A stretch of DNA of 64,000 nucleotides. It comes from Eledone cirrhosa. Its lineage: Eukaryota. The first letter of the stretch is position 1; the number at the start of each line of letters is the position of its first letter. The notes under the pieces were generated by a model. The model saw only the letters and a program-made list of their open reading frames with translations, searched no databases and was not told where the DNA came from. The stretch covers positions 12,524,001 to 12,588,000 of the forward strand of contig OZ024757.1 in NCBI GenBank assembly GCA_964016885.1, read 5' to 3'. The position numbers and the translations under genes are program-made. Below, in pieces: positions 1 to 59,100 of this stretch.

Positions 1-626
1 TAGTATATGTTAATTAGGTTTATAATAATTAAAACAGATATTGTATTTTATCTATAGTAGAATATAATTATAGGTAAACAGAAATTAAAATTAATACATA
101 CACATATACACATATATATACATATATATATATATATATACATATATATACATACATATACATATTTTTTCAAAAATTGCAAAGAATATATTAACTAGGT
201 ATACATCCAAAACCTATCTCAGTCTATGATTACATGACACTCTGCAATCCATCTGTATTAGGATATTAATTTTAAGCCAATTAAATTAAATTTTTAGGTT
301 AACCAAATTTAAAACCAAATTATAAATATATTTCTAAAATGTACATTAATTAGGTCTATAATACTAAAAATTATTTCTCTGTCATTGAATACACGATATT
401 TTGTTATATTTTATCTGTAAAGGAATTTTAATAAAAGGTTAAATAAATTAAAATTAATCTATAAATTAATTTACGAAGTATATATTAGTAATATTTAAAA
501 GTTTTTCACAATTTATGATTACACAATATTTTATAATCTCATCTGTAGTAGAATTTTAATTAAATTAAATTTATAGGTTAACCAACATTTAAATTAAATT
601 ATATAATAATTTCTAAAATAATGTTA

Positions 627-3059
627 TTAATTAGGTTTATAATATTTAAATGTTTTTCTTAGTTTATGATTACACGATATAATTAATTCCTGTCGTTTAT
701 TTAATAGGATATCCTTAGATTTCATTATTTCAAATAGTTCTTGGGAACATAATCTACATTCATTTCTATTATTTTGATAAGGGGTGGCTCTTTTGAGCAC
801 ACTCCAGGTCATATCATATTCTATATTCTTATTTTTATAACTATTGATTTTTTCTGCTAGAGATGTTGTATTAGCCAGTGCGGCATTTTTAAAACTATGT
901 TTGTGGGTATTAAACCTTGCCTTAAAATTGTTAGAAGTAGCTCCTATATATGAGCAAATAGAATCTTTAGTTTTAACATTACATTTATAAACTATGTTGT
1001 TAACAAGACAATTTCCTTTTAATGGGCAGTTTGCTTTGTTTCTACAGTTACAACCTTTCGTTAATTCTGTATTTGAGGAGATATTATGGTTAGTTTGATG
1101 TATTGGTGGTATACTTATGGTATTCTTACATTTATATGCATTATAGGCACTTATATTTTGTTTTATGTTATTTGTTGTTGAGTATGAGAATTTAACTGTA
1201 GACCTATTTAAGATTTGATGGTATTTGTGGTTTGGCGGGAAGTTTTTCTCTAGGATATAAAATTTTTTTTTAGCAATATTATCCTTAATTTGTAAATTAA
1301 ATGGAGCATTATACCAAGTAACCCGTCTATTACGGTTTCTATGTTGTTTATTATTTTTATAGGTTGTATCGTGATGTTTACTAGGAGGATTAATGTTAAT
1401 GATCTCACCCCGCACATTTTTAGTTAGATTTGTAAATTTAGGTGTTTTATCTTGTTTATTAGGAGTTTTATTATTAACATTTATTAGAGTTGTATGATGA
1501 GTAGTTTTTTGAGAGTTACTATACTTTATATTAGAAGAGTTGGTATTTTGGGGTATAGTGTGGGTGGCATTTATGTGTGTACTTTTCATTTGGTGTTTGT
1601 TGGTAATATTAGGTTGTATGTTTATAGTATTTTTAGTAGAAGGTATATATTCTAATCTATTTTTGTGGCCACTTCTATCTAGAGCTTCGTTATAGAAGGT
1701 CGCATTTTTATCAAATACATCTTGGTTAGAAGAAAGGTTAGAAATTCTAAGTGATATATTATATGCAAGGTTTTTAAGGATAGATTTAGGGTGATTAGAT
1801 TGTGAGTGTATGTAGTGTAAGTTTTGGTTGGGTTTATGGTAAGGTTGGTAGATACCCGTAGCTAAGTCTAAAGTTATATCTAGGAAATTTACTACTTTAC
1901 TTGTTTTTTCAAAAGTAATATGAAGACTATAATAGTCTTTAAGGAAAGTTATAATATGCTTTTTGTTTTTTTCTATTTCTGAAAGGCTAAGGTTGTTGGA
2001 AAGAAGAAGACAGTCATCACGATATAAACCACCTTTAAGGTGGGGAAAGGAGGCATTTATGTTGAAAAGGAGAAAGAGGCCCACAAGATCAGTAATTTGG
2101 GCGGAATCGCTTGAACCCATAGTAATATCAAATAGATTACTATATGTGTTTCTGGTCCAGTATTCATTCTGAAATTCAATAAGTGTTAGTCTAGCATGTG
2201 TAATAATATTAATGTCATCCAAAGTTAAGTTAGATCTATTTTTAGCAAATATCAATGCTTTGTTCAGGAGTATAGGTGATATAGAAGAATAGTAATTATC
2301 TATATCAAATTGTAGAAATGAAGCAGAAGATTTACATCTAATATTTTTAAACCAGTTAATTACCTGGGAAGTGTTTTCCCAGAGTGGTAAAATAACGTGT
2401 TTTCTTATTTGTGGGATGACTCTATCCAAAAATTTTTTGCTAATTATTCCAATATCAGATTTGGAGGGACATATAAGTCTTATAGAAGGATTTGAGTTAA
2501 AGTTTGATTTATGATCCTTCAGGTTGAAGTGTGGTCTTTTCAATGCCAAAGGTTCAGTTCTATCTTCAATGTTTAGTTTTTTTACTATGTTGTGTGTTTT
2601 GTTGTTGATGTTGGTGAGTGACGCATTATTAGATATTTTATAATTTTTCCTGAGTTCTTTATATATGAACTCATTATAATCTTCAATATCCATGTGATAC
2701 AAGTTACCAGTTTTGTCCGAGTGGACATGGATTTTTTTAGACTTTTTTAGGTCCAATAGGGTAGAATCAAGGTCCTTTTGAAAGACAGATTTATACTTTT
2801 TAAATTTGAGGTGTTTAATTAAATTAAAAAGGTCTTTCTCAAAGTCTTCAAGCAAAGAGTTGTGTGGTGGATTCTTGTAAGTATTGAAATCATACATATA
2901 TTTCCTATCTGCATATTTAGATTTTTTATCGAAGTGGTAGGCCCTCCATCTAACTCTTCTGATAAATTGGTTAGTTTTTTTAATCATAAGGAGTAAGAAA
3001 TCATCCTTAGAAGGTATTGGTATGTTCTTTAAAGAGGTTCCCAAATATTGTTTTTCCAT
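627..3059 (-). CDS. Penelope-like element RT + C-terminal GIY-YIG endonuclease, uninterrupted ORF (~810 aa; possibly Hydra clade)
   Basis: N-terminus SLKNIPIP..RRVRWRAYHF; RT motifs FLQFDIDNYYSSI, TMGSSDS, GLYRDDCL; thumb YHKPN..YIHSQSNHP; endonuclease CNCR..CPLKGNC..IVYKC..YIGAT..FKARFNTH..CRLC..E. Likely ATG at 3059 (MEKQYLG). Confidence 0.93.
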   Translation of the reverse strand: MEKQYLGTSLKNIPIPSKDDFLLLMIKKTNQFIRRVRWRAYHFDKKSKYADRKYMYDFNTYKNPPHNSLLEDFEKDLFNLIKHLKFKKYKSVFQKDLDSTLLDLKKSKKIHVHSDKTGNLYHMDIEDYNEFIYKELRKNYKISNNASLTNINNKTHNIVKKLNIEDRTEPLALKRPHFNLKDHKSNFNSNPSIRLICPSKSDIGIISKKFLDRVIPQIRKHVILPLWENTSQVINWFKNIRCKSSASFLQFDIDNYYSSISPILLNKALIFAKNRSNLTLDDINIITHARLTLIEFQNEYWTRNTYSNLFDITMGSSDSAQITDLVGLFLLFNINASFPHLKGGLYRDDCLLLSNNLSLSEIEKNKKHIITFLKDYYSLHITFEKTSKVVNFLDITLDLATGIYQPYHKPNQNLHYIHSQSNHPKSILKNLAYNISLRISNLSSNQDVFDKNATFYNEALDRSGHKNRLEYIPSTKNTINIQPNITNKHQMKSTHINATHTIPQNTNSSNIKYSNSQKTTHHTTLINVNNKTPNKQDKTPKFTNLTKNVRGEIININPPSKHHDTTYKNNKQHRNRNRRVTWYNAPFNLQIKDNIAKKKFYILEKNFPPNHKYHQILNRSTVKFSYSTTNNIKQNISAYNAYKCKNTISIPPIHQTNHNISSNTELTKGCNCRNKANCPLKGNCLVNNIVYKCNVKTKDSICSYIGATSNNFKARFNTHKHSFKNAALANTTSLAEKINSYKNKNIEYDMTWSVLKRATPYQNNRNECRLCSQELFEIMKSKDILLNKRQELIISCNHKLRKTFKYYKPN

Positions 3060-3383
3060 TGTGATATGGATGATGGACAATTGAAAGAGCTCAACTAAAT
3101 GTATATGGGTTTACAAAATCATACATATATATGTATATACATAAATATAAAATTAACACACACATACAGTACAAAAATACGAATATTTCCGTGAAAATAG
3201 GAGCAAAATTATGTAGATAAATCTACCAAGAGTTTACGGTAGTGTCCAATCCGTATGAAGAACTCAATGTAATCCGGATATCATGGAAAGAAGAGATGCA
3301 ATGAAAAATCACTTTCGGTGAAAGATAAACGGAATACAGAGTCAAGATAAAATGTTAAAAAAATAATGAATAAAACAATGAAA

Positions 3384-4145
3384 CCTCCTAGTAAACATCA
3401 CGATACAACCTATAAAAATAATAAACAACATAGAAACCGTAATAGACGGGTTACTTGGTATAATGCTCCATTTAATTTACAAATTAAGGATAATATTGCT
3501 AAAAAATTGTTTTATATCCTAGAGAAAAACTTCCCGTCAAACCACAAATACCATCAAATCTTAAATAGGTCTACAGTTAAATTCTCATACTCAACAACAA
3601 ATAACATAAAACAAAATATAAGTGCCTATAATGCATATAAATGAAAGAATACCATAAGTATACCACCAATACATCAAACTAACCATAATATCTCCTCAAA
3701 TACAGAATTAACGAAAGGTTGTAACTGTAGAAACAAAACAAACTACCCATTAAAAGGAAATTGTCTTGTTAACAACATAGTTTATAAATGTAATGTTAAA
3801 ACTAAAGATTCTATTTGCTCATATATAGGAGCTACTTCTAACAATTTTAAGGCAAGGTTTAATACCCACAAACATAGTTTTAAAAATGCCGCACTGGCTA
3901 ATACAACATCTCTAGCAGAAAAAATCAATAGTTATAAAAATAAGAATATAGAATATGATATGACCTGGAGTGTGCTCAAAAGAGCCACCCCTTATCAAAA
4001 TAATAGAAATGAATGTAGATTATGTTCCCAAGAACTATTTGAAATAATGAAATCTAAGGATATCCTATTAAATAAACGACAGGAATTAATTATATCGTGT
4101 AATCATAAACTAAGAAAAACATTTAAATATTATAAACCTAATTAA
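3384..4145 (+). pseudogene. Inverted, 5'-truncated copy of the GIY-YIG end of the PLE ORF
   Basis: Same protein as 627-1388 but with a TGT->TGA stop at ~3642 and a C->Y change in the CPLKGNC motif. Confidence 0.9.
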
Positions 4146-5204
4146 TAACATTATTTTAGAAATTATTATATAATTTAATTTAAATGTTGGTTAACCTATA
4201 AATTTAATTTAATTAAAATTCTACTACAGATGAGATTATAAAATATTGTGTAATCATAAATTGTGAAAAACTTTTAAATATTACTAATATATACTTCGTA
4301 AATTAATTTATAGATTAATTTTAATTTATTTAACCTTTTATTAAAATTCCTTTACAGATAAAATATAACAAAATATCGTGTATTCAATGACAGAGAAATA
4401 ATTTTTAGTATTATAGACCTAATTAATGTACATTTTAGAAATATATTTATAATTTGGTTTTAAATTTGGTTAACCTAAAAATTTAATTTAATTGGCTTAA
4501 AATTAATATCCTAATACAGATGGATTGCAGAGTGTCATGTAATCATAGACTGAGATAGGTTTTGGATGTATACCTAGTTAATATATTCTTTGCAATTTTT
4601 GAAAAAATATGTATATGTATGTATATATATGTATATATATATATATATATGTATATATATGTGTATATGTGTATGTATTAATTTTAATTTCTGTTTACCT
4701 ATAATTATATTCTACTATAGATAAAATACAATATCTGTTTTAATTATTATAAACCTAATTAACATATACTATAGAAATTAATATATAATTTTTAATTTAG
4801 TTAACCTATAATTTATATTCTACTACCGATGTAATACTTTATTTGTTTTTTTCCCTATTACTAAATTCATTTCCTAATATTGATACCATAACGTTAATAA
4901 TTTTAATTTAGTTATACTATAATTAATACTCTACTACTATTTAACTTCAAAATTCCGCTTCAAATATTATAAACCTAAGTAGTATACACCTTAGAAATCA
5001 ATATATTAACTATCTTTAATTTAGTTAACCTATAATTAATGGTATACTTATATTGAAATGCATAATTTTGCCTTCTTTCTTACATTTCCTAATACTGAAA
5101 CTACTATGTAAACACATATTATGATCTAAATGCAGATTAATATTCTATGTTTCTTAAAACCTATATTTACTATAATCCCCCCCCCCTTTTCCCCCCTACT
5201 ATTA

Positions 5205-10244: not shown

Positions 10245-10477
10245 AAATCCTGGTGTATTTATTGGCATTGTTACCTACATAGAGCACTCTTTTTTCCTGG
10301 ACATTTGCGACGGAATTACTTTATTTTTATATATATATATATTAGAAAGTGAGTTTTTTTTACAAAATGAAAAATAACCGAGGTGTCCTACACGAGAGAA
10401 AGTATAAAGAAAAAAAGATGAAATCGAAAATGCAACTGGAGTCTTATTTAAAAAAATATATATATATATTTATTTGG

Positions 10478-10518
10478 TTCCTTTACCGGTTTCGCAGTTC
10501 TTCTGCTTTTCAAAAGTA
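10478..10518 (-). ncRNA. Hammerhead-like motif with variant core (TTGAAAA)
   Basis: Reverse complement reads ctt-TTGAAAA-gcag aagaa ctgc-GAAA-ccgg-TA-aagg. Confidence 0.45.
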
Positions 10519-10561
10519 GAGTTGAGATGGAGGGTCTTTGGTTTTTCAACCAAATAAATAT

Positions 10562-11606
10562 ACCAGATAGAAAAATGCGTACAGCAAAAAAAAGTAATAT
10601 TGTTGGAATATAAACCTTTAAAAATACAGGACAAGAAACTAAAATAAAACTTTAAAAGAATAGGACAAGAAACTAAGATAAAACTTTAAAGAATTGGACA
10701 AGAAATAAAAAAATTTACAATAATATTAGTGGCAAAATTTTTATTGGTAAAAAATCGAGTTCCACATTCATAGGCTCTGGGTTCCATATTCAAAGGTCGT
10801 CGTCAGACCGAGGGGATCATATGATCCTGGTTTGAACACCAATTGAGCCATAACCATACCCCTATTTCATCATTCGGCGACACGCCTCATGTGTCATGCA
10901 TAATGTGAATGGACCCATGGGCCCATGAGCTCAGATCTTGAGCAGCAGCAGACGGTCTTGTCGTCCCGCTCATCCTTGATCTTGACCAACCTGTCCATCT
11001 TCTCCTTGCATCTTGTCCTTGAGTTCAAGTCCGGCAGTCCAGATGAATGCGTGCCACAGCTTTCTGGTACAGGAGGACTGGAGGGATGACGGGACAGAGG
11101 GAGGGAGGACCGGTGGTTGAGGGAGGTGCCGTAGTCGGTGGTCAGAGTCGACATCTTGTCCCAGTCGTCTTCTCCATCTTCGTCTGGTGTTGCGGGACCA
11201 GAAGTGCATTCTTGGAGGAGACCTGCAGCTGCATCGGCCAATTCTTCTTGCAATGGTCATTCTGACGGAGCAGAACTGCTCAGCCAACCAACCCCAACCA
11301 GAACCAACCACCTCAGGGGCAACGCACAATGAGAGCATGACAATTATTATGCACTAATCAAGAAGATACTGGGGCATAGCACAGGAAACGAATAAAAAAA
11401 ATTTGCCACTAATATTATTGTAAAATTTTTTTATTTCTTGTCCAATTCTTTAAAGTTTTATCTTAGTTTCTTGTCCTATTCTTTTAAAGTTTTATCTTAG
11501 TTTCTTGTCCTATTCTTTTAAAGTTTTATTTTAGTTTCCTGTATTTTTAAAGGTTTATATTCCAACAATATTACTTTTTTTTGCTGTACGCATTTTTCTA
11601 TCTGGT
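10562..11606. repeat. ~190-bp inverted repeat (10562-10745 vs 11392-11606) flanking a GC-rich cassette
   Basis: Direct reverse-complement match, including an internal ~33-bp tandem subunit (ggacaagaaactaagataaaactttaaa). Confidence 0.9.
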
Positions 11607-11879: not shown

Positions 11880-12239
11880 ATGGACAAAAACCCATGCAAA
11901 GAAATGACTTTGACTGCAGTGATTCTCTCCAATTTACTTACAAAGCAAAACGTGGTCAAATACCTTATCATCTGTGATAAAATGCCCATTGAATCACTGA
12001 AAATCGGATGCATGGAATTAATCATAAAATGCACCTATGAATCGGAAGCCATCACATATATCAATGGATATAGGGAGTTGTTCACACTGGAAGACCATCA
12101 CTTCATTTGTGACTTCATCAGTTATCTCCACGATCATCTCAGACACCCAATGCCATTGATGAGAGGTGATCCAATGTGTGAGCATGTAACTAATCTTATA
12201 GAAGTTGTTATCGACCACCTGGCTTTTAGTGACATTTGA
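11880..12239 (+). CDS. Helentron cargo ORF, possible BACK-like (BTB-associated) helical domain
   Basis: NLLTKQNVVKYLIICDKMPIESLKIGCMELII resembles the L-x-x-x-N-V-x-x-x-L-x-x-A-x5-L-K-x-x-C-x-x-x-I pattern of SPOP/KLHL 3-box/BACK; preceded by a ttttAG acceptor at 11878. Confidence 0.35.
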   Translation: MDKNPCKEMTLTAVILSNLLTKQNVVKYLIICDKMPIESLKIGCMELIIKCTYESEAITYINGYRELFTLEDHHFICDFISYLHDHLRHPMPLMRGDPMCEHVTNLIEVVIDHLAFSDI

Positions 12240-12419
12240 CTGATTTGACTGATAATGATGTATTTTTAAAAAGTATGTGTACATTCTTGTTACTATTTTA
12301 AGGCAATGCAAGCAACAACTATTTAATAAAATTTTAATTTAAAAATGACCATTGTGCATTACTAGTATGATGACATTTTATTAAGTCACAAAATTAGTCA
12401 GTCAGCCATAGAACAAGAA

Positions 12420-12720
12420 TCAGGTGGCAAAAACATTGGCAAAAATTTGTGTCAATTTAAGATTTCCAACATTGTTCAAATGAATCATATCTGGTTTGAG
12501 GTCAGATTTGTCAAAGTTTGACCAATTTTCAATGTTGTGAAGATTGGGCAAGTTCAATTTTTGAATCATTTCTTTCATGGAGTAATTAAACTTTTCCAAA
12601 CGAGAATATCTCTTGCGCAAGTCATTTTTATTTTCAATTACACTTTGTGGACGTGGAATGACACCACTGTAGAAAATGGGTGTACAGTGGTGCTTTTCCG
12701 CTATTTTCTGTAGCCTTGCA
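12420..12720 (-). pseudogene. SGNH/GDSL hydrolase C-terminal fragment (Helentron accessory)
   Basis: ..PIFYSGVIPRP...FNYSMKEM...IENWSNF...KPDMIHLNNVGNLKL: SGxLPR and DxxHLNxxG motifs. Confidence 0.7.
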
Positions 12721-13254
12721 AAGAGACTCTTCCCCTGTTTTTTCCGGTTTTGTGCCTCGAATGGGCACTTTGTCCTTAATTTACAAATAAATGATTAATA
12801 AAAAATACTTGGGCAAAAATTATTGTATTACTTTGCACAGCTTTGTAGTGCCAACGGTGCGACGAGGATTCAGATCATTAGAGCATGTAACTAATCTTAT
12901 AGAGGTTGTTATCGACCACCTGGCTTTTAGTGACATTTGACTGATTTGGCAGACAACAGATACATTGGATAGACCTACTGCATACTTCGGCACTATCCTC
13001 TGACACTGTAGCTTGACAAATGTAACAAATTTCCTGTAGTACTACATATAAATGAAAAATTGCTCATGTTACAAAACAACAGTTACATTGGACAGACCTA
13101 CTGCATACGTCGGCACTGTCCTCTGACACAGTTGCTTGACAAATGAAACAAATTTTTCATATAGTAGTACAGATTTTTATACTCTATATTATTTTAATGT
13201 CTAATAGAGTTCACATGGATGTGTAGGACAGAGCATTCTGGAGTGATATTGGAC

Positions 13255-14105
13255 CTATAGTTTTTTTTTTAAAAGTAAAACAATATTTGGCAATTTAGGT
13301 GGAAATTTTGGGTGCCTTTTGGTTATGCACGTGTCACTAATTTCATCCCATTTGTCACCATCTTTGTGAATTAAACAAGTGTAATGACCTCCTGATGTGG
13401 AACCTAATGTGTGAACAATTGCTGATTGAAGTTGGAAATTGGTATAAAAAAACTGCTGGCGTTTTGAACTGAAATTCAATAAATCACAATGTATTTGAGT
13501 TTCTTGACCACTGGTTATGAGGAATCGGTTGATTGATACTACAAGGTAGTGCATTGTGGGTGGGAAATCTCTCCTGATGGTTGTTTTGTGCTCTGTATTG
13601 GTGGTGCAGGTGTCACATTGTTTTATTATGGTGTCATTTGATACAAGTAAAGTACGAAACTGTTGAGGGCCTTGAATAGGATGCAATGTCAAGTCTGATT
13701 TAATTTCTGGTGTTTTGTGAGTTTCGAGTCCACATCCAGGTCTATGTGTGCAAGTACAAATTTGATCATTCAAACGTGGGCATTCATTTTCATGACTTTT
13801 AGTGCATCTTAGTGTTTCATTCACTTGAAATTGGAATATTTGCTGTGCATTTGGTGGAAAATCTGGGTAGATATTTTTCCAAAAATCATGGGCACATTGT
13901 TGAGCACCATCATTAAATCTCCCCCAATTAATCTTCGCAGAATTGAAACATCCCGATCCCCTTGTGTGACAATATTTGCTATTTCCTGAACAACTGGACT
14001 GAGTAATTTGGTAGACAACAAAGTTTTCCAAAGTTTGGGCAATTGGGCAATAGCTTGAAGTGTAGAATTGGCAAAACAGGCATTTTCCTTATTTTGTAGT
14101 CTAAT
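13255..14105 (-). CDS. Ubiquitin-specific protease (peptidase C19) domain fused to the helicase C-terminus
   Basis: Cys box LQNKENACFANSTLQ (in frame with the helicase), QQCAHDF box, Cys pairs, LVVSINRF, His box IVHTLGSTSGGHYT..WDEISD; one frameshift at the G-run ~13921. Confidence 0.85.
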
Positions 14106-17100
14106 CATGGGAGTGAGCATGGAAAGTGTAGCTAATTTAGGTTTTTTGGTAGGAGGAGCATATTCAGAAGGGTTGTCCACATTCAACATTCGCCATGATC
14201 GTTTTTTTGGCATGCAAGATTCAGAAGCCATGCATGGTGGTTTATTTCTACATGGTCCAAGTGGAGGCAATTTTGTTGTAGAACGCAATTTGTTGTACTC
14301 TTCCCAAGCAGATTTGTCACACATGATCAGGGTTCGTGGGTCAAAATCTATCAAATAGACATTGCAGAGTTTCCTAGCTCGTGAAAGTGCAACATAGGCC
14401 ATTCCATCTGCGAACAACAGAGGACCAAGATCAGCAATGACCCCATCAACACTTATTCCCTGTGATTTATGGATGGTGATGGCATAGGCAAGGCTTAGGG
14501 GGAACTGTTTTCGTGTCACATACACACCAGGAAAGATTTCATAGTCTGCAGTCACCTTTTCTATTGAAATGTCATTGCCTATCATGTGATCAAATTCCAC
14601 AATGATTTGTCCCATTTTCCCATCTTTTCCATTGACCATGCTTTGCACTGTTCCCATGACACCATTACATAGCCCCTTCACCAAATTAATGTTTCGTCTC
14701 AGCATTACTCTGGCCCCAACTCCAACTTGCAATTCAGTCTCAAGTCCAGCAGTGTCTGATGCCTTTTTTGGTTTGGAAAATTTGTTTGACTTTGACTTTT
14801 TTTACGACCTTTCTGGCGCATTCCTGAGTCCTCAGCAATAACTACAACTATACTGATGTTGGCATGCTTAAGCATTTCCTTGTTGAATTCATCTACAGAC
14901 AGGCAAAATACAGACAAATTTTTGACTAGGTAATGTGCAAAGTTGCATTAGTTTCTCAGTTGCTTCTCTCATTGTTGCCCTGCGATCTGGGAATAGGCAA
15001 TGTTCACTCAAAGTATTGATGTCCATGTCTAGGTGATCCTATTCTTATTCGACCCAACATTTCAGAATAGTTTTCACTGTCATTTTTTTGCCGCATGTTT
15101 ATAGTGAGCTCATCATAGTCGAAAAATTTCCACAGTGACTGCCCACTTATTCCCAGACCAGTCCTTTTAGCATCATATGCAGAAATACTGGAAAAGAGTG
15201 TTTTTTCATTTACTGGTGGAAGTTGAAGTAGATTGCCAAAAACCAGAATATTTATTTTTCCAAAAGGGCTGGTCATTTGACTCTGGTCCCCAAAAATCTC
15301 ATCTAGACGCCTATGGATAAATGCCAACATCAGATGACTGACCATACTTATTTCATCGATAATTATCAGACGGACACCCTCTAGAGTGGATCGCAAAATT
15401 TTGAGTTCATCACTTTCTAATTCCCTATATGATGGTGACTGGGAGTTTCAAGAGCCTGTGCAAAGTAGTCCCCTTGATTTGGAAAGCAGCCATACCAGTT
15501 GGTGCACAAATGACTACTGGGGCCCCATTTCTCTTGCAACAAATTTGAGTAACTTTGTCAGAAATTATATCAATGAGAAACTTTTCCCTGTACCTCCTAC
15601 ACGAGAGACAAATTTGAGAAATTGTGGGCAATCATCACATCTGCACCTTGGTAGTGGTTTTTCCGAATTCCAATGCAATTCCTGTTTTTCAATTGCTGAT
15701 AAAATTAGATTGTATATGGATATTTGATCTGTATTAAGCTGTGTTTCTTTTGTCTGTAGAGCAGTTTCATCTACATCTCGAATTTGGGGAACATCAATAC
15801 CAGCCTCATCTCTTGCCTCCTTCTCCCCCTCTTCTCTCCGTCCTTCTCCGACCTCTCCCTCCTTTTCACCCTCCTTCTCCAACCTCTTCCCCATCTCAAC
15901 TGCATCAGTGATTTTTTTCCTCACATTTTGAAAATTCACCATATCAGGCAAATTGTTTGCACACAGATGAAAGGACTCTTCAAATGTTTTGCATCCCCCC
16001 AATAAATCTTTGTCCTCATCGCGCCAGGGTTTGAACAGCATTAGAAGATTGTGGTAATAACGTTCTTTTGTGTCATTTTTGAGCTGTATATTCGGTGCTT
16101 TAACTACCCGCTCTTTTACACTATGAAAATACCCCTTGTCATTGAGCAATTTCATTTTTGTAGCCACATCTTTGTCAACAGGTTTTTTTTGTGTCCTCTC
16201 ATATTTGCTGGCAACTTCATATAAGGAGGAATCTTCCAGGAATTTTGGCCGGTTTTTGTAAAAAGTTTCCACCATGTTCTCGTAGAACAAGTCCATTGAG
16301 TGTTCACTCAGTTCATCGAGATCATTTTGAGATTTCAATCTGCGGCCGCGCCTAATGGGAATGTCTGCACCTACCCAAATAACATGATCTGATGACCCGT
16401 AAAAATGATGCCCCAAAAGTTTGTCAGCAGCTTCATACCCTCCTGTATCCCTTTTCCCAAGCAATTGCAGTCCAGCACTTTTGTATTTCCCATATTTTGT
16501 TTTGGAATGATCCAGATTCGCCCACACTCCCTCAGCCTCATTTTTTTCAGCCTTAGTCTGATAGCAGGTGACATATCTATTCAAAATCATACTATTCTCA
16601 CCAATGTATTGCACATCTATATTTGCTTGCCAGGCTAGAAGTAAACATGGATTGTAGTCATTTATGTACTTTTCTGATTCTTTTCTTTCCAATTGGTACA
16701 GTTTTTTTGTCCCATTACCATTTTTTCGTGATTTGATACTTTCAGAAACTGAGAAAAACCGAAATGGCCCCACTGCACGTGCAAAACCAAAACGGCATTT
16801 TTTACGAAAATGTTTCCTTCTCCTCACTATTCTCCAGCATGCTTTGCCACAAGTATGGACTATGAACCGTCTAACGAGATTTACCAAGTTTGGGCTGGCC
16901 ACAGGGGATGGTAGCCGGCAAGTAATGCAGCGTTCAATAAATTGCTTGATTTTTTCTTTAGGATCTTTGTCAAAGATTACACTGTCCCGAACCCAGGCTT
17001 TAAGGTGAATGTGAGGGGCACCACGTTGTTGATACTCGAGTCGCCAAAAGTAATGAATAATTTCCCCAAATGGGCCTTTTTTATTTAAAATTACATCATG

Positions 17101-18974
17101 AAAAACAGCACTAAAACGATGGTGAAAGTACTCACTGACAGCCACAACATCATTTGCACAGAGATTCCCTATCAGCCTTGTTTCAACATTTGCAATGTCT
17201 TTATTGAGTTTTTCCAAAAATTCCCTCAAGCCTGGCCAAAAGTATTCAGCACATGAAAGAGTGATAAACAAATGGGCAGGACCGAATTTCTCATCTATGG
17301 CATTCAAGTCGGAGCACTTGTGTTCCCAAAATGGCTTTGTTCCACGAACATTCGCCATCATCATTGACAAACCACTTCCCAATTGTTCATCGTTGTCTTC
17401 CAATCTTTTATAAAATTGAGCAAGTGTCAATTTTGGACTTTTGAGTGATTTCATTACGGCATAAATGCCAGAATCTAGTGCTCTTTTGTCAGTCTTGTCC
17501 AAATTGTAGAGAATGTACTGACTGTCTCTACGAAACCGGGGGTCCTCATGTCTGAGTCTGTTTCTGATGAACATGTAGGACTTTACTCTAACATGGGGTC
17601 TGTTCATGTGCATCATTCCAAATTTTCCTTTAGGGAATAAGTGGGGGAAGCACATCAGATCCAGGTTTGGATCATTGTCCGGAAGAAGAGTACCTTCAAC
17701 TCGTTTCATGCGAAACAGTTCAAGGTCCTTTTGATTTGGGAGTGCAGGCTTGATTTTCTGTACAGTATGGTGTTCATAGACTGTTTCAGCATCAGTTTGT
17801 GTGAGAATGTGTGGAAAATTGATGGAAACATTTTCACCAGTGCATGTAACAATGTCCTCTAAATTTGTGGTTCTGTCTATCAAAATGTCATTGTTGTTTT
17901 TCAGCCACTCCAAGGCATCAAAGACATTTTGCATATTCACTAGCGATCGCCAAATTGTGCCCTTTTAGTTGGAACACTATCAACAATTATTTCAAATGCA
18001 TCATTTTTATTCGATGGAAGTTTTTTCATTACATGATTGATTGTGTTTTCTACTGGTAGTGGCATGTGAGTTGCTATTCCTTTAATAGCAGCTACTAGAT
18101 GTGATGGTGCACCTTTGAAACGATAGGGTGACAATTTAATGACATTGATGAAGCAATTGGCCATTTGGATCAAAATCTGCTCATACATGTTCAACATTTG
18201 GAATTTTGACCACTTCTAGGCCATTGATTGAAGCCAATGATGGTATCGACTTTTTGACAAGACTATTTCTACATGTAGAGCAAATCGTACATGGTAGAGA
18301 GTAGTTTTGTTGAATGGTTTCCAGGAGATAGGGATTTGTCAAAGGGCTCCAATCCTCCCAGACTTTGAGTTTAGCATCTAATTCTCGTTGTTTGCAAATG
18401 TCACAGGAGTTGATTTTCCTTTTTTGAATCTCTTTATTAAAATGTTTGATAATGGATGCAAAATTGGCCATGATTGAGGATTCTGAATGCAAGCTCTCAT
18501 TTTCATTTTCCACTATCTCATTCAAACGGCTTAGCAGATTGTTGGACATGTTTTTTGGGATTTACTAGATCATCAAACATTGACCAATTTCCTTCCAAGA
18601 TTGAAATGTCATAGGAGTCTAGCCAGACACAGACTGATCTCACTTTGTACACACATCTCAGAATTGTACGGATGCGAGGAGAGTGAGGAGCCATACTTCG
18701 AATCAGTTCAAGTCCATTTGTGCAGTCAGACTGTCCTATGTAATAGATGTTGTCCCTATGGAATCCTTTACACTGCTCAAAGTTTTCCATTTTTTTCCGA
18801 ATTTGGGACACAGTCAAATCAGGTGAAAGTTCATGTATGGCCTTGTGCATTCGTTTAGCTAGCTTTAGACGTGCAGTGGGATCTGGGCAATTTGATGGGG
18901 GACCAAATTTGCACAATCTAGCCAAAGTCAGAAGTTCTGTACATTTTCTGCCATCAAAATCTTCCTGGTCACTT

Positions 18975-19365
18975 TGCTCACCCCCTCTTTTTGTGCACCT
19001 GTCTCAGTTTGCTCACCTCCATCAGTTGGCTCATCTACCCCTGTTTGTGGACATTAACTTCGCTCACCTCCATCAGTTGGCTCATCTACCCCTCTTTGTG
19101 GACATTTCTCACTTGGCTCATCCCCCCCTCTTTGTGCACCTCCCTCACTTGGCTCATCTCCCCCTCTTTGCTTGCCTTCCTCACTTGGCTCATCCCCCTC
19201 TTTGTGCACATTTCTCACCTCCCTCTCCTTGTGCACCTCCCTCACTTGGCTCATCTCCCCCTCTTTGTCCACCTTTCTCACTTGGCTCATCCCCCCCTCT
19301 TTGTGCACCTTTCTCACTTTGCTCACCTCCCTCTCCTTGTGCACCTCCCTCACTTGGCTCATCAC
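18975..19365. repeat. Coding minisatellite (EPSEGGAQRGGD-like units) inside the Helentron ORF
   Basis: Recurring cacttggctcatc(t/c)cccctctttgtgcacc units. Confidence 0.9.
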
Positions 19366-20233
19366 CATCTTTACACCTGCACTCATTTGTTGGACAGTCA
19401 TCAGTCAGAAAATTGTGGTTTTCAAGTTCTGTTAGACGAAAATAATCAACTGTACTTTTTGGGAATAGAAAGTGTTCATTTGTGAAAGTATGGTAAAATA
19501 TTTCCCCCCAGTATGCAGTCAACCCCTCCTTCTTAGCTAATTTGATGTGTGCATAAACTGAAGCCATTGTTTTTTTCAATTCATTAAACATGAAATTTCG
19601 AATTCCCTGTGCTGCTCTGTAGATTTTGGAAACTTTTTCAAGGCCCTGCTTGAATTTCTTCCTATACTGTGTCCGATTTTTTGGTTTTTCTTTTTTCGAA
19701 GCCAAATATGATTTTGTGAATTTGTGTAACATGATTTCCCTTTGCATGCGAATGTCTTTAAATCGTTGAATTCGTTTTTTTCTGTACAAAAATTTGTGTT
19801 TTTGTTGTATCAACCGTGCATTTGTAAAATAATAATGTAAAAAATATATGGCATCTTTTTCTTTTCCTTCTTCTCCTGTTCTCAATCTGTGTGCTTTTTG
19901 ATACAATGCCTGTTGACGTTTGCCCTCATCGCCTGCTCTCACTCTGTGCTCTTTTTGATTCAATGCATGCTGATTTTTGCCCTCATCACCTGCCCTCAGT
20001 CTGCGCACTTTTTGATACGATGCCTCCTGACTTTTGCCCTCATCGCCTCTTCTCAGTCTATATGCTTTTTGCCATGCCTTACTTTTAAATTTTGCTTCGT
20101 CTGACTGTCTTTTTTCTCTTATTTCTGCAGCTTTCCGTTGTCTGTACTCCCTATTCCTAATTGCAGTTTTTCTCCGTTTTTCATTCTGTTTATCAATGTT
20201 TTGATCTTTGTCAGTCTCATTGAATTCAAATTC

Positions 20234-20300
20234 AGGTCCAGGATTTAATTCGACACAACCGATTATGAGCAATAAGATTAACGCGCGCGTTCTATATTTC
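20234..20300 (-). other. 2A-like (StopGo) ribosome-skipping motif
   Basis: RTRALILLLIIGCVELNPG|P; matches (D/C)(V/I)ExNPGP with a hydrophobic leader. Confidence 0.7.
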
Positions 20301-21386
20301 TGATTGGAAATAGGATAATTTCGTTTTTTGGATTTGTAAAAACTGGCATGAATGTGAATTTGATCAGTCCAATTGCCCGATTTTAGTGAAAGGTATTGAT
20401 TCGAAATGGAAATACTCCATGGAAATACTCCATTTCTGGAAAAACTGAATAAGCCGAGCAAAATTCTATATCCAGAGAAATTCTTTTTTTTTTTGTTTTT
20501 ATCAAACTATGCTCGCAATAATAATTTTCAATCCAAAAGAGAAATTTTTTGTTAGACGTCGAAAAAACTCTTTCTTTTGTGTAGCATTTTTGTGTTCGTC
20601 TGTATGCGTGAGTTACTTGTGTTACCATGAAAGTTATAACAGAAATATTGTGTAAGTCGCGTGCTTCAACAAATGGAATATTATGAATTTTATGGACTTA
20701 CGCTAAGCGAGTCTAGAAACCCGATTCGAATATTCCAAATGTTAAGCCACTCCACATTTCCGTTAAAACGACTGGCGAATTCAAATAGGCTGCGTTTTCA
20801 TACATAATCGTCGAGGGTCACAAATTTGGTGTAGATATATTGTCACCAATTTGGTTTAGGTATAAATTCGAATTTAGCGGAGAAGAATATTTAGAGAGTT
20901 GTTGTGTTGTTGCCACGAGGAACCAGGTTTGGTAGAAAGATACGATAGGAATATCGACAACGAATTTTAGCATGTTTTTACATTATTTATTAATAAAGGT
21001 TAAGAAGTGAATTAAGCTGGCATGCCAAGAATAATGAAATAATTCAATTAAGATTACAAGAGAAAATACGGGCGACTGGCTGAAGGCGTTTGGTCAGGCT
21101 CGTAGGTAATGTTTTGTTGTTACATATTGTTTGTGCTTACGGAGCAAAAGAACAAGTGTTGTTTACCTTAACACGGTCTAGCCTGGAAGTGATAGCGTCC
21201 TCAAATCTTTGCGGGCTATTTCTCCCTCCGAACGCGTAGGGATACATCCTCTTCTACTGGCGCTGATTGGCTGAGCTGAGCCAAATCACGCACAGAATGT
21301 ATGTGAGCCCGCGGAATGTAGGTCACTACACCTGGTATATGAAGAGCAACCGATACGATCGGTCTTGAAGAAGAATGAAGAATGAA

Positions 21387-22009
21387 ACCTTATCATCTGT
21401 GATAAAATGCCCATTGAATCACTGAAAATCGGATGCATGGAATTAATCATAAAATGCACCTATGAATCGGAAGCCATCACATATATCAATGGATATAGGG
21501 AGTTGTTCACACTGGAAGACCATCACTTCATTTGTGACTTCATCAGTTATCTCCACGATCATCTCAGACACCCAATGCCATTGATGAGAGGTGATCCAAT
21601 GTAACTAATCTTATAGAAGTTATCGACCACCTGGCTTTTAGTGACATTTGACTGATTTGACTGATAATGATGTATTTTTAAAAAGTATGTGTACATTCTT
21701 GTTACTATTTTAAGGCAATGCAAGCAACAACTATTTAATAAAATTTAAATTTAAAAATGACCATTGTGCATTACTAGAATGATGACATTTTATTAAGTCA
21801 CAAAATTATTCAGTCAGCCATAGAACAAGGATCAGGTGGCAAAAACATTGGCAAAAATTTGTGTCAATTTAAGATTTCCAACATTGTTCAAATGAATCTG
21901 GTTTGAAGTCAGATTTGTCAAATTTTGACCAATTTTCAATGCTGTGAAGATTGGGCAAGTTCAATTTTTGAATCATTTCTTTCATGCAGTAATTAAACTT
22001 TTCCAAACG
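21387..22009 (+). repeat. Direct duplicate of 11962-12602 (cargo ORF and SGNH tail)
   Basis: Near-identical ~620 bp with small deletions. Confidence 0.95.
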
Positions 22010-22370
22010 TCGTCATTTCTGGATTACCTCCCCTAGCGTCACGCTTACTACTCACTCACTTGAACACAAGATTTATCAGCAAACTTTGATTATAAATTTT
22101 TTCCTGCTGGACCAAATTTCTAGATTTTTAAGCCGAAAGATGCGTAATGATCTACTGTTCATGCTCATATAAGTTTTATCTCAATTAAATAAAGTAGAGC
22201 CGCGCTGTACTGTCGTAAACAGACGATTGTCAACGAAAACACGACCACAACAATATTACTAAACGGACGGTAGTCCGTTTAGGATATATATTTTTAAAAA
22301 AATACGACTCCAGTTGCATTTTTGATTTCATCTTTTTTTCTTTATATAAATATATATATATATATATATA

Positions 22371-22548
22371 CGAAAATGTTTGACCCCGACGGCAGAGCTC
22401 AAGCCGTTTCGACGGCTATTTCTGGAAATAGTCCAGAAATAGCCATCGAAACCGCTTGAGCTCTGCCGTCGGGGTCAACATCTTCCTATTACCCACTCTA
22501 CTACCCTAAGTATTGAGTACTCTGGTGCGTTATGGTCCATATGGGTCC
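22371..22548 (+). mobile_element. Short palindromic element (family also at 32947-33140 and 59101-59295)
   Basis: gaccccgacg..gtttcgacggcta..tagcc.tcgaaac..cgtcggggtc hairpin plus a shared tail cctattacccactctactaccctaagtattgagtact. Confidence 0.8.
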
Positions 22549-24958
22549 TTTAGACATCTCCGTCGCCTTCAACCCCTCCCACCACTCCCTCGTCACCTCC
22601 GCCTTCTTCAAACCCACCGACTCCCACTCCTACCTCGACTTCACCTCTTCCCACCCCACACACACTAAACACTCTATTCCCAACTCCTCAGGATCCGCCG
22701 CCTCTGTAGCCGAGATCTGACTTTCAGTCCCAGGCCCTTTCCCTAGTCAGCCATTTCATCAGCAGAGGTTTCCCCCCCCCCCCTCTCGTCCACACCGCTC
22801 TCACCCGCGGCCGTACTGTCCACCGCTCCACCACCCTCACCCCACGCCACCACACACCCACCCACCGTCTCCCCTTCCCCATCACCTACCACCCCTCCAC
22901 CATACCCCTCCACCGCACCATCCTCCGCCTCTTCCGACGCCTCCAGTCCGACCCCTCCACCTCCCACATCTTCCCAGTCCCACCACTCCCCTCCTTCAAA
23001 CGCGCACGCAATCCCTGCACCCTCCTCATCCACAGCTCCCTACCGCCCAACCCACGCTCCCCTTTCCCCCCGGTTCCCTTCTCTGTTCCAGGCCCCGCTG
23101 CAACACCTGTCCCCACATTACCAACACCACCACCTTCCAGGGTCCCAACGGCCAGTCTCTCTCTGCCCGGCATGCTTTCCGCTGCACCTCCTCCAACCTA
23201 GTCTACGGACTTCGCTGCACGGAGTGCAGCGCGACTTACGTCGGACAGACTGGACGTCGCCTGGCGGACAGGTTTACTGAACACCTCCGAGATATTCGTC
23301 TCGGTGGTAGTTCCCCCATCGCCCGCCACTTTGGTGCCCCTAGACATTCCGCACACCACCTCACAGTATGTGGCCTACTCCAATGCCACGGAACACCCGC
23401 CACTCTCCTCAGGGTCGAACAACGAACCATCTTCACCCTACAGACCCACACTCCCCCCGGCCTGAACTCCCCACCCTTATTCCTTTAGCCTTTGACCGCC
23501 CCCCTCCCCCCACACCCTACCACCCTTCCCCAACTAACATAGTAACATCCCTCCCTTCTTCTCACCCCCCCCTCCTTATCACACGCACACACCCACCGGT
23601 ACATATATACACGCGCTCACACTAAACACACACCCTACTACCACCACTAACCCTCACCCCGACACATCCACCCCACCACCCCGCAACTAACATCACTAAC
23701 ACCCCCCGACCCCAAGCACACGAACACACACACCCTCTTACACCACCCACTCTACACACCCTACCACCACTGACCCCCACTCACACCCGCATTCAACCCT
23801 TTCTCCACCTTCAGTATACTAAAACCCACTAACACCCCTCCACCACACACACACTCATCCAAACACGCACACACACACCAGTACACTACACTCCCTCCAT
23901 CGGCCCCCACACCCTTCCCTCCCCGCTCCACCCACACCCTTTCTCAAACACACACACATCCCACTAACACCTCTACTAATACACACACACCCCCTCCTCA
24001 CTGCAACTTTCACACCTACCCATCCTCTCCCCTGTCCACCGCACCTCCGCACACACTGACACACCGACTTTCTTCACTTACCATTCTACCCTACTGCTGC
24101 TATGCCCTTATCTCTGACCACCTCCCCGCACACACAGACACACAACCCTCCTCCTGCCTTGACCCTCTGACCACTTCCAGTTCCGCGCGCACCCCACATC
24201 TCCCCTCTTCTGACCAATCTCTTCACGGATTAAACATATGTGAACCTAGAATCCACCACATCCAAGGATATTACTCAGCATTCCACCACATCGTCTACGG
24301 AATTACCTTAAGGACTCACCCACTGACATACACCCCAAAAAATGTTTTTCCCCACACGCCACCTACATCCCAACACGCATAAACTCCACACACACATGTG
24401 CGTACCACCACATATTTACACATTCAGCCTCCGGAATCCTCTCCCCCCACCCCTCTATCCACACACGCACACACACTCCGACCTACACCCCACCCCACCC
24501 CACACACCTCTTCCTGAACATGCAACCCCGTTCTTCCTCCAACTCTTAATTTCACATACACACACACACACACGTACACCTACACACACACACCACCTTC
24601 AGCCCTCCCCGCTCGGACACCCCACCTCCCTCTCCCCACTCCACCCGCCACCACCCCTACACGCCCCACATCCTTCCACCACCTGTTTTACTTCATGTGT
24701 ATTTTTATTTTTATCATGCTTTTATATTTAATTTCATTTGTACCGTTTCCTCTCACCCCCTTTTTTCTATATGTCTCTCCACGACTACCCTACACACCCT
24801 TGGAAATCTCTTCCCACACACTTTTCACCTGAAAAGGGGCTTATGCCTGAAACGTCGTTCCCCACCACCACCCCACTCTCAAGAGTGTGAAACTAATAAA
24901 CCTTTGTTCGTACTGCCTCTCTGTTTTGTTCCCGTTCAATTGTTTACTATATATACGG
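22549..24958 (+). mobile_element. 5'-truncated Penelope-like element (Neptune-like), decayed RT thumb + GIY-YIG + pLTR
   Basis: LDISV..FFKPTDSHSYLDFTSSHP; FRCTSSNLVYGLRCTECSATYVGQTGRRLADRFTEH..PIARHF; pLTR with CTGAAAAggggcttatgcctGAAAcgtc at ~24829. Confidence 0.88.
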
Positions 24959-24959
24959 G

Positions 24960-25343
24960 ATAACAGATTATTGTTAAAGGTAGTACAGTTAAGGTACTCC
25001 GAGTAGTGGATGATGTCAACGCTTGGCTAAGTTTGACTCAACAAGGCGTTTCCATAGTGATGCTGCGAGTACGCGGTAATTTCTATGTTGTTAACACTTG
25101 GAGTAATTTCTAAATCAGGAAAGAAGAGTGACACGGTTTGCTATACAAAAAAGGTTTTTAATCTCATTGCTGACAATTGCTAGCTCTGATGAATTGACTG
25201 GTTATAACTATGTATTGGTGATCGAATGACGCGAAAACAGGCGGGTAGCGATTTCTAGACCTACCAGTTCAGAGAAACAATTGTCAGCTATGAGATTAAA
25301 AACCTTTTTTGTATAGCAAACCGTGTCACTCTTCTTTCCTCTT

Positions 25344-25377
<34 letters not shown>

Positions 25378-25795
25378 AAGAGGAAAGAAGAGTGACACGG
25401 TATATATATATAAAGAAGAGGAAAGAAGAGTGACACGGTTTGCTATACAAAAAAGGTTTTTAATCTCATAGCTGACAATTGTTTCTCTGAATTGGTAGGT
25501 CTAGAAATCGCTACCCGCCTGTTTTCGCGTCATTCGATCACCAATACATAGTTATAACCAGTCAATTCATCAGAGCTAGCAATTGTCAGCAATGAGATTA
25601 AAAACCTTTTTTGTATAGCAAACCGTGTCACTCTTCTTTCCTGATTTAGAAATTACTCCAAGTGTTAACAACATAGAAATTACCGCGTACTCGCAGCATC
25701 ACTATGGAAACGCCTTGTTGAGTCAAACTTATCCAAGCGTTGACATCATCCACTACTCGGAGTACCTTAACTGTACTACCTTTAACAATAATCTG

Positions 25796-25799
<4 letters not shown>
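24960..25799. mobile_element. Fold-back pair of ~390-bp HHR-bearing pLTR-like arms around (TA)n
   Basis: Arms 24960-~25357 and ~25402-25799 are reverse complements (coordinate sum 50759). Confidence 0.9.
25181..25290 (+). ncRNA. Type I hammerhead ribozyme, GUC site (mirror copy 25469-25578 on -)
   Basis: tagct-CTGATGA(25186)-long stem II (actgg/ccagt)-GAAA(25274)-caattg-TC-agcta. Confidence 0.75.
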
Positions 25800-25835
<36 letters not shown>

Positions 25836-51473: not shown

Positions 51474-52081
51474 ACGTGGGAAAGTAAAAAATCGGAGAAT
51501 AGACCGTTAAAAGATGTTTATTTAAAATATCACCTACGTACGTTTCGCCCAGTTGGGCTTCTCAAGGGCATAAATAATCACAAGTGTTCCTTATATTGCT
51601 CGGAAAGAGTTTTTGAGGTTAAATCCACATGTTTATTTAAAATATAACCTACGTACGTTTCGCCCAGTTGGGCTTCTCAAGGGCATAAATAATCACAAGT
51701 GTTCCTTATATTGCTCGGAAAGAGTTTTTGGGGTTAAATCCACATCAAGGTTCATTGCTCGCAAAAATATCTTGTTTTGATTTTGCAGCAGGTCAAGGGA
51801 GGTAACTCTGGCCGGTGTTAGGGCAGTCTTTGTCCGGGAAAGATTGCCCTAACACCGGCCAGAGTTACCTCCCTTGACCTGCTGCAAAATCAAAACAAGA
51901 TATTTTTGCGAGCAATGAACCTTGATGTGGATTTAACCCCCAAAACTCTTTCCGAGCAATATAAGGAACACTTGTGATTATTTATGCCCTTGAGAAGCCC
52001 AACTGGGCGAAACGTACGTAGGTGATATTTTAAATAAACATGTTTTAACGGTCTATTCTCCGATTTTTTACTTTCCCACGT
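51474..52081. mobile_element. Palindromic pLTR-like element with three HHR-like units
   Basis: Arms mirror around ~51835; left arm has a tandem duplication; unit tatgccc-TTGAGAA-gcccaactgggc-GAAA-cgtacg-TA-ggtgata (51983-52027). Confidence 0.8.
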
Positions 52082-54481: not shown

Positions 54482-54737
<256 letters not shown>

Positions 54738-55313
54738 AGGAGGTTATAGTTCACTTGAAGCATTGTGTAATGAGGTATAAACGTTAGAATATGTGTAATA
54801 AGGCCAAGACAATGCAGATATGGACATAGAAAAAAGAATGCAATAGTGAAAGATATTGATGAGAATTCGTCTTTCACCTTGAATTTATTTAAATGTCCTT
54901 AATTTTCGAGATAATATCTCTTCTTCGGAGGGAAGTAAAAGTCTCAGACCAGCGTCTAAATTTCCAATGAAGCCATGCTGACCGGAAATAGTATAGAGTT
55001 CTAACTTTAATATCAAAGAATTAAAATTAGGTGGGTAAAGAGTAGTCTCCCTTTAAGAGGGGTTTGTTTATGTTTTTGTTGTGTTTTTTTAAATTTTATA
55101 TGCGTGCCTGTATATGTGTGTGGGAGAAAGCATGAAGGTGTAGGTATGTGGGTGTGTGTGTGTGAGTGTGGGAAGATAGGTCTAATCGTAAAAGTGGGGG
55201 GTAGGTGTTATCTGGTGTTAGAACTGGTTTTGTGTGTGTATGTGTGAGAGAGAATAAGTGGAGGTGTGCGCGTGCGTGTGTGTGGGGTGTGTAAAGTGGG
55301 GCTAGAGGCCCTA

Positions 55314-56547
55314 TCAGGTTATAAATTGGGTGTTGAGCTCTAGTCTATTATTGATTGGTGGATGTGTTCTATCTATAATGAGTGCTTCCTTGATTCTAAG
55401 ATTGCCGAGGTTTCTTTCCTTAGTTTCTATCCTAACTGTTATGTTTTTATCAGTGTTTTTGCATTTAACTAGGTGTTTCTTAAATGAGGAAGCGTTAGTA
55501 TTGAGGTGTTCTTTTATTCTTATGTGGAGTGGTCTGGTGGTGCTACCTACGTAGAAGTTGTTGCATTTGTCACACTCTAGTCTGTAAACTACGTAAGCCT
55601 GGTGGCATAGGTCTGTGTCGTTGATGGGGCAGTTGGCTAGTCTGCAGCAGTTGTCATGTCTGGTGGAGTGTCTCTTAGCTAGCCGTCCACGCAAAGAAGG
55701 ACCCGAATGGGCCAGTTGAATATCCAGACCTTCTCGTCTGATGGCTCTGCGGATGGCTGTTGTTGTTTCTTCACTGAAGTGTGGGAGCTTCAGGAAGCAA
55801 GTGTTAGTGCCTCGGGTGTGGTGTCCTCTGTTCTTTCTGGCACGGTTTGTGGTGGATGTCGTGTATCCGTTCAGTTTGAGTACTTCCAGGAAATGTGTGG
55901 TGTGTGTGTCTCGGTCTCTGGCGTCGGTGCATTTGTTCTTGATACGTGCCAGTTCGTTCTTTATGTATCCGAACTTGGCACCGAGTGGGAGGGCCGATCT
56001 GAAATGTACGAACAGGTCCCTGCTGGCGGCTTTTTTATAGAAGCAGGTGTGGATGTTGCCTTCCTCTGTTACCCTGAGTTGGAAGTCCAGCAGGGATAGG
56101 GATCCGCGGTTATCGGGGTGTTCTAAGCTGAACTTTATACTGGCGTCCATGCTGGAGAATGTTGTGTATATTTTCTCTGCCTCCTCACGGGATGATGTAA
56201 GGATGAGTATGTCATCTACATATCGGGTGAAGAAGGCATGGGAATGGCAGGTGTTGAGGGCTCGGCATTCTAGTTGGTTCATGTAAGTGATGGCCAGCAG
56301 GCCAGAGAGGCTGGATCCCATGGGTAATCCTGTTGTCTGTCTGTATGTGTGGTGGTGGAAGGTGAAGTACGTGTTGTCGACTGTGAAGGACAAAAGTTGG
56401 TGTATGTCCGTCGGGTGGAGGCCGTAGCAGTGGATGTTCTCTGCGACCACGCAGTCCGTCAATAAATCGACAGCTGGGTGAGCGGGGACTGTAGTGTAGA
56501 GGGAGACAACGTCGAGGCTAAAAGCGTATTTATTAAGTTTAAGTTGT
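55314..56547 (-). CDS. Inverted partial PLE RT/GIY-YIG ORF
   Basis: Identical to the C-terminal part of 56548-58458 except one D/N change. Confidence 0.9.
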
Positions 56548-58458: not shown

Positions 58459-58990
58459 TAGGGCCTCTAGCCCCACTTTACACACCCCACACACACGCAC
58501 GCGCATACCTCCACTTATTCTCTCTCACACATACACACACAAAACCAGTTCTAACACCAGATAACACCTACCCCCCACTTTTACGATTAGACCTATCTTC
58601 CCACACTCACACACACACACCCACATACCTACACCTTCATGCTTTCTCCCACACACATATACAGGCACGCATATAAAATTTAAAAAAACACAACAAAAAC
58701 ATAAACAAACCCCTCTTAAAGGGAGACTACTCTTTACCCACCTAATTTTAATTCTTTGATATTAAAGTTAGAACTCTATACTATTTCCGGTCAGCATGGC
58801 TTCATTGGAAATTTAGACGCTGGTCTGAGACTTTTACTTCCCTCCGAAGAAGAGATATTATCTCGAAAATTAAGGACATTTAAATAAATTCAAGGTGAAA
58901 GACGAATTCTCATCAATATCTTTCACTATTGCATTCTTTTTTCTATGTCCATATCTGCATTGTCTTGGCCTTATTACACATATTCTAACG

Positions 58991-59051
<61 letters not shown>

Positions 59052-59064
59052 TGTATGTATATAT

Positions 59065-59100
<36 letters not shown>

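Follow-up and report, generated by a model that had tools for sequence, protein, structure and literature searches.

The window analysed here, by which we mean the whole 64-kb stretch of DNA, contains a decayed rolling-circle transposon of the HLE2 (Helentron) group, approximately 11 kb in length, and near the start of its transposase gene lies a virus-like 2A (StopGo) motif. The features of the element, listed from its 5' end, are as follows:

22247..22282: candidate HLE2 terminus on the upstream side of the gene, made up of a perfect 10-bp stem-loop (22259-22282) next to a 12-nt subterminal repeat (22247-22258)
21387..22009: 641-bp direct copy (96%) of 11962-12602, in the 5' part of the element
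20237..20433, minus strand: leader region, open in the 2A frame, with no in-frame ATG in the window copy
20234..20293, minus strand: 2A/StopGo-like 20-mer, RTRALILLLIIGCVELNPG+P, read from the sequence and fitting (D/G/C/N)(V/I)ExNPGP
19190..20233, minus strand: RepHel N-terminal region with basic, charged helical repeats, a YHT-type motif and a 36-bp array (BLASTP to relative P0007)
19861-20071: 57-bp repeat unit within the RepHel N-terminal region
19065-19363: variable 36-bp tandem array, within which the 2A frame stops
17943..19003, minus strand: frameshifted region ahead of Rep, containing DUF6570 and CxxC pairs (tblastn of P0002, P0005 and P0021)
15565..17964, minus strand: Rep (HUH) with HIH and Y-x3-Y, then the helicase Walker A (Helitron_like_N, E 1.8e-27)
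13824..15564, minus strand: PIF1-type helicase with three in-frame stops and a frameshift (PIF1, Pif1_2B, UvrD_C_2)
13255..14100, minus strand: C-terminal USP/UCH deubiquitinase, split by a frameshift (UCH, E 0.006 and 4.1e-9, 36.9 bits)
11410..11421: candidate partner subterminal inverted repeat, with one mismatch in 12, near a T-run

The HUH Rep of this element is fused to a PIF1 helicase, as in a RepHel transposase, and full-length relatives are collinear with it over 18900-13260. DUF6570, a marker of HLE2, matches within 17943-18215 (E 4.7e-5, at the cut-off score of 24.3), and both the Cys and His boxes of the USP/UCH domain were found. According to PMC11417382 these two domains hardly occur outside HLE2 elements; among our relatives DUF6570 occurs in all 20 scanned and UCH in 13 of 20 long matches. 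A reading made from the sequence alone had named the element a Helentron, which holds in the sense of the wider HLE2 group but not in the strict sense, since no APE domain was found: no endonuclease family was matched in the 10 element frames scanned with Pfam, and what follows the 2A is RepHel sequence, with no reverse transcriptase. The same reading took the USP as part of a virus-like layout. That view adds little, because UCH is a described accessory domain of HLE2 (PMC11417382) that is fused to many relatives lacking a 2A; it therefore gives no pointer to a virus-like polyprotein, and we set aside the USP as a novel or virus-like trait. Other fusions are carried by the HLE2 relatives P0058, P0059, P0031 and P0149 (N-terminal Macro, N-terminal UCH, C-terminal Ulp1 protease, SAP).

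The window copy is dead and cannot make protein, since it has no in-frame ATG, at least four frameshifts and three in-frame stops in the helicase frame (15567, 15516 and 15450). Its candidate termini would fit the layout described for HLE2-reverse elements (PMC11417382), with ends that are approximate; AT-rich 12-mers such as the inverted pair 22247-22258/11410-11421 can match by chance. T-runs lie near both candidate ends, where a T/T insertion was sought, and no clean empty site was found. Joints at 11749/22011 and 12022/22013, in runs X1, X2 and X5 and in X4, leave out about 10 kb, which would suit internally deleted derivatives or an empty site.

Several further repeats occupy the neighborhood. 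A 340-bp mini-element (10403-10742, plus strand) matches 22346-22284 and 11609-11396 and has the same 12-nt inverted pair without a matching stem-loop; it is either a non-autonomous derivative or a repeat that received the element's insertion. Beside the upstream candidate end, 22380-22478 holds a 47-bp near-perfect inverted repeat that sits within a repeat of very high depth. In the 3' part of the element a weak GDSL/SGNH-like match (12423-12794, minus strand, E 8.5e-4, below the cut-off) overlaps the 641-bp block repeated within 21387-22009 and is possibly a captured gene piece. Farther away, a second and distant Helitron (59541-63801, minus strand) has a Rep 22% identical to that of the first, several broken frames and no DUF6570 match in the frames scanned, and its 5' part leaves the window at a 69-bp array. 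Two Penelope-like RT/GIY-YIG frames lie on opposite strands at 54633-59100 in a 1.9-kb inverted duplication (97.6% identical), and an 827-aa frame (627-3110, minus strand) with no Pfam match has an RT-like YRDD motif and sits in a 1.4-kb inverted repeat (99.4% identical); this stretch, 1-4771, is probably another Penelope-like element. Long palindromes occur at 24948-25808 (886 bp, 93%) and 51618-52049 (435 bp, 96%).

The 2A motif itself is the 20-mer RTRALILLLIIGCVELNPGP, encoded on the minus strand at 20293-20234. Its frame reads ...KYRTRALILLLIIGCVELNPG+PEFEF..., with the NPG and P codons at 20245-20234 and the predicted skip site between Gly (20239-20237) and Pro (20236-20234). The core, CVELNPGP, meets the expanded StopGo core (D/G/C/N)(V/I)ExNPGP; upstream of it lie a Gly and the Leu-rich hydrophobic tract ALILLLIIG, with four Leu at -19 to -10, and the Cys codon, TGT, is a single base away from the Gly codon GGT. 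NPGP occurs only here across the six frames of the whole window. Both the motif that had been claimed within 20234..20430 and the charged repeat region said to follow it, which corresponds to the 57-bp repeats, are thus borne out. The motif lies far beyond chance expectation: with the element's own composition, G-x-[VI]-E-x-NPGP is expected 1.2e-5 times over the 7.2-kb coding span read in six frames, and in 3000 order-3 Markov simulations it appeared in none, with ExNPGP in 3 and NPGP in 48. The pattern was picked post hoc, for a motif already known, and the margin is wide.

The open frame that carries the 2A runs from stop to stop over 20506-19190 on the minus strand (438 aa), and a BLASTP search of a 163-protein set aligned its residues 138-347 with residues 5-224 of the full-length RepHel-USP protein P0007 (E 2e-5), an alignment that takes in the YHT-type motif common to relatives. 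P0007 was found by BLASTP alone; phmmer of the 438-aa frame against the 163 relatives gave no match, nor did a search of residues 55-330 among 2737 proteins of 768-2190 aa, and in the ESM Atlas the best score was 0.76 (residues 26-140) with no usable match for residues 30-95, neither result being informative. At its downstream end the frame closes (19190) inside the 36-bp array, and the same frame reopens at 19003, where it matches P0002, P0005 and P0021. Since the 2A frame leads directly into the N-terminal part of an HLE2 RepHel, the 2A segment is not a nested insert, an outcome that had been named in advance as one that would overturn the claim. Sequencing depth in run X1 is 154 over the 2A bin, within the 71-197 seen in the element interior, and one contig at a depth of about 100 spans 19459-20240, including the Gly and Pro codons, alongside diverged contigs at depths of 10-18. 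Contig depth is no copy number, and these values suggest a small family that includes the 2A segment.

Upstream of the motif the frame is also open, and in the window copy it contains no in-frame ATG: the ATGs at 20433, 20420 and 20349 are all out of the 2A frame, and the first in-frame Met of the 438-aa frame is residue 254, 166 codons past the motif. Within the leader, 20406-20433 holds a 13-bp tandem duplication, and variants from other copies point to where translation may once have begun. Two contigs of run X2, with a loose end at 20420, lack the duplication and have an ATG that is in phase with the 2A and stands four codons before the Trp codon at 20419. A 1-nt gap at 20385 (one contig each in X1 and X2, from one sample) would shift the ATG at 20420 into the 2A frame. 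A reading of the two variants by eye gives leaders of 65 (loose end) and 61 (gap) residues, from which we infer a start 61-65 codons before the skip site; neither variant was seen on one molecule with the 2A codons. Depth in run X1 climbs from 154 over the 2A bin to 877 in the adjacent upstream bin, and the start variants may therefore stem from a more abundant derivative. The variant rows listed for contigs include none in 20234-20293, which carries no weight either way. An earlier placement of the motif 60-75 codons into the ORF accordingly holds for the start inferred from other copies and not for the window copy.

Conservation of the motif across related elements, which the sequence-only reading had put forward as a check, was not found. 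Neither the core nor a one-off variant of it is present in any of 174 related RepHel proteins (five of them cluster duplicates), all of which are at most 40% identical to the window element (39.9% for the closest); at least 550 residues precede the Rep in 52 of 172 relatives, and at least 750 in 22 of 172. The core is likewise missing from the six frames of 38 RepHel loci; the long frame of L001 is closed 9 codons upstream of its Met and that of L009 26 codons upstream, and neither has a 2A. NPGP does occur in L012, L031 and L032, which were rejected as they lack the core. Given this absence in relatives and loci, the 2A cannot count as a trait of HLE2 elements in general, and its codons were seen in a single family copy only; 2As of LINEs are described as similarly patchy within clades (PMC3708506). 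RepHel scans of viral contigs returned nothing, or helicase matches only (80 of 491 kept). The sole locus from prokaryote genomes is a RepHel-like match (L038, 1091-2659) on a contig of 2.9 kb from the assembly of a bacterial symbiont. P0001 likewise bears a bacterial label, and the likely cause in both cases is host DNA in the assemblies.

Whether such a peptide would skip can be judged from tested look-alikes. The StopGo core has recently been widened to (D/G/C/N)(V/I)ExNPGP by Li et al. (2026, PMC12846837), where rare natural core variants, including those with Cys at p12, are reported to be about 90% active or more in vitro, and this supports the earlier recognition of Cys in the Asp position as a genuine variant. 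Among the peptides ending IGG(V/I)E(L/V)NPGP listed by Snell and Matreyek (2026, PMC13405545), six of seven belong to a skipping class and one to the class of fall-off with reduced protein; the window peptide is absent from the supplementary files searched, and 12 of its last 13 residues are identical to two of the skipping-class peptides. In the same source a Cys-core peptide ending LLIIRCIELNPGP, with which the window peptide shares 11 of 20 residues, is classed as skipping with reduced protein, another peptide with a Gly-Cys-Val-Glu core skipped, and two that have a Cys core but no intact NPGP failed to skip. Of the listed Asp-core counterparts of IGG-type peptides only one in six skipped (PMC13405545); several of these we take to be the authors' engineered partners, which suggests that the IGG subtype needs no Asp. 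The look-alikes in these supplements were found by string searches and are not a full census; a row in which CVEL does not occupy the core position was left out. The presence of at least three Leu at -19 to -10 is associated with lower protein yield (PMC13405545). When two viral 2As were scanned by mutation, changes at the Asp position never reached the activity threshold (bioRxiv 10.64898/2026.09.24.754024), and several 2A-like sequences of LINEs are reported to be inactive (Odon et al. 2013, PMC3708506). Both of two pattern matches in viral contigs show the Leu/Ile-Gly-Gly type of peptide inside a long viral-type polyprotein frame. The 2A of the window is a real motif and is restricted to its lineage; judged by these peptides it was probably once active, with a putative role set out below.

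We lean, with somewhat better than even confidence, towards the reading that the RepHel-USP gene carried, in frame near its start, a 2A that was specific to the lineage and once worked. Under this proposal the lineage would have gained a short leader, perhaps from a retrotransposon or an RNA virus, ending in a working 2A/StopGo in frame before RepHel-USP. Translation of an intact copy would begin 61-65 codons upstream of the skip site; the ribosome would stall on the Leu/Ile tract and CVELNPG core, as the tested look-alikes imply, release the leader-2A peptide and resume at Pro to yield a transposase of about 2,300 aa without the leader. The 2A most likely had two effects: it would cut a foreign leader off the transposase, so that a captured leader may supply the start site while the foreign peptide is removed, and fall-off or lower yield would limit the amount of a DNA-nicking enzyme.

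An alternative is that the motif is a passive relic: a captured 5' piece of a 2A-bearing LINE fell in frame, its motif has decayed and lies idle, with Cys derived from Gly or Asp, and the start of the transposase came from a different ATG or from splicing. Helitrons are known to capture gene pieces (PMC11417382), and the absence of the 2A from all 174 relatives, the want of an in-frame ATG in the window copy and the rise in depth from 154 to 877 just upstream, where the 5' half of the leader may be a more abundant repeat, would all be consistent with such an origin. However, Pfam gave no match to an endonuclease or any further LINE sequence beyond the Pro, and the frame runs unbroken into RepHel-like sequence. 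Moreover, the first Met past the motif sits 166 codons on, within the conserved N-terminal region, whereas two separate variants put an in-frame ATG at the usual distance from a 2A. On balance we consider this explanation unlikely, if a serious one. A separate nested insertion outside any RepHel frame might be read from the end of the frame at 19190, ahead of the first strong RepHel match, and from a unitig that ends at 20240; yet residues 138-347 of that very frame align with a RepHel N-terminus, the stop falls in a variable array beyond which the frame reopens at 19003 with its matches to P0002, P0005 and P0021, and the depth resembles that of the rest of the element, all of which makes an insertion highly improbable.

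Basic residues followed by a hydrophobic tract could also mark the leader as chiefly a signal peptide or membrane-targeting sequence, at which partial skipping would send the product to two destinations, and the 2A-like signals of sea-urchin NLR proteins offer a precedent (PMC4981915). But the tract is 11 residues long and stands about 45 residues past the inferred start, hydrophobic tracts are normal in 2As (PMC13405545), and entry into the ER would presumably bring no gain to a nuclear transposase; we regard this possibility as very unlikely, though a shade less so than the insertion. The least credible account is a chance match. It draws on the post hoc choice of the pattern and the very many windows read, and it is opposed by an expectation of 1.2e-5 for the core alone, by its absence from all 3000 simulations, and by an upstream tract, frame and position that are also right.

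Both the 2A and the HLE2 element are of known kinds, and it is their pairing that appears new. In the literature full text searched, with most subscription journals and Repbase reports outside its scope, no link between Helitrons and 2A or NPGP was found; the word Helitron is absent from the main text of the 2A papers and from the supplements searched, and the literature matches listed include no DNA transposon, helentron or polinton with a 2A-like sequence. These sources describe natural 2As from RNA viruses and retroelements, and from a small number of cellular genes. If the 2A of this element worked, the device would not be tied to RNA-based replication, and the case would separate two ideas on transposon 2As: that they replace an ORF1/ORF2 split, which cannot hold for a Helitron, and that they let the element restrain its own enzyme output, which can. 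It also offers a cheap test of how Helitrons keep their DNA-nicking enzyme in check, and enlarges the small set of known natural peptides that are Leu/Ile-rich with a Cys core.

A possible second case comes from coral. The proteins XP_044182051.1 and CAH3036358.1, listed in the supplement of PMC13405545, have a 2A-like peptide at residues 38-62, of the fall-off class, and in XP_044182051.1 (curated as 'ATP-dependent DNA helicase') the 2A is followed by a tegument-like deubiquitinase fold and charged helical repeats. Herpes_teg_N is described as nearly confined to HLE2 among Helitrons (PMC11417382), and it stands at the start of three of five RepHels picked for that motif. The coral proteins therefore look like a candidate second, independent 2A-bearing HLE2 N-terminus. 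They differ from the window element in their Asp core, in showing fall-off only, and in being 624 aa or shorter with no Rep shown, and the authors of PMC13405545 do not call them Helitrons; a search with tegument-DUB HLE2 relatives gave seven matches, with a 2A in none. We propose, tentatively and at somewhat less than even confidence, that HLE2 elements gained working 2A leaders more than once, in the window and coral lineages, and that leader-2A is a portable module shared by RNA viruses, LINEs and DNA transposons. Such a cassette would bring a start site, remove itself and throttle enzyme output.

Among known systems, the element is most like HLE2, which includes Helentron and HLE2-reverse (PMC11417382), in its DUF6570, Rep, PIF1 and UCH domains, and like HLE2-reverse in its candidate 12-nt subterminal inverted repeats and a stem-loop 5' of the gene. 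It differs from the group in having no match to an APE endonuclease or OTU, and in bearing a 2A, which is not among the accessory features that PMC11417382 names. For the peptide, the nearest tested look-alikes are the eukaryotic 2A-like sequences of LLIIGG(V/I)ELNPGP type of Snell and Matreyek (PMC13405545). Rotavirus CIESNPGP, to which the sequence-only reading had compared it, likewise has Cys in place of Asp, but its upstream context is of class B (WVRDLT type; activity 0.26; Rao et al., PMC12338488), whereas that of the window peptide is Leu/Ile-rich, and we dismissed it as the nearest model. A close parallel in arrangement is provided by the 2As of APE-type non-LTR retrotransposons (PMC3708506), which are also Leu-rich, sit in a mobile element's main ORF some 40-80 aa after its start and have been proposed as limiters of the downstream enzyme. 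Unlike these, the window 2A has Cys rather than Asp in its core and precedes not an APE/RT but an HUH Rep-PIF1 helicase-USP protein.
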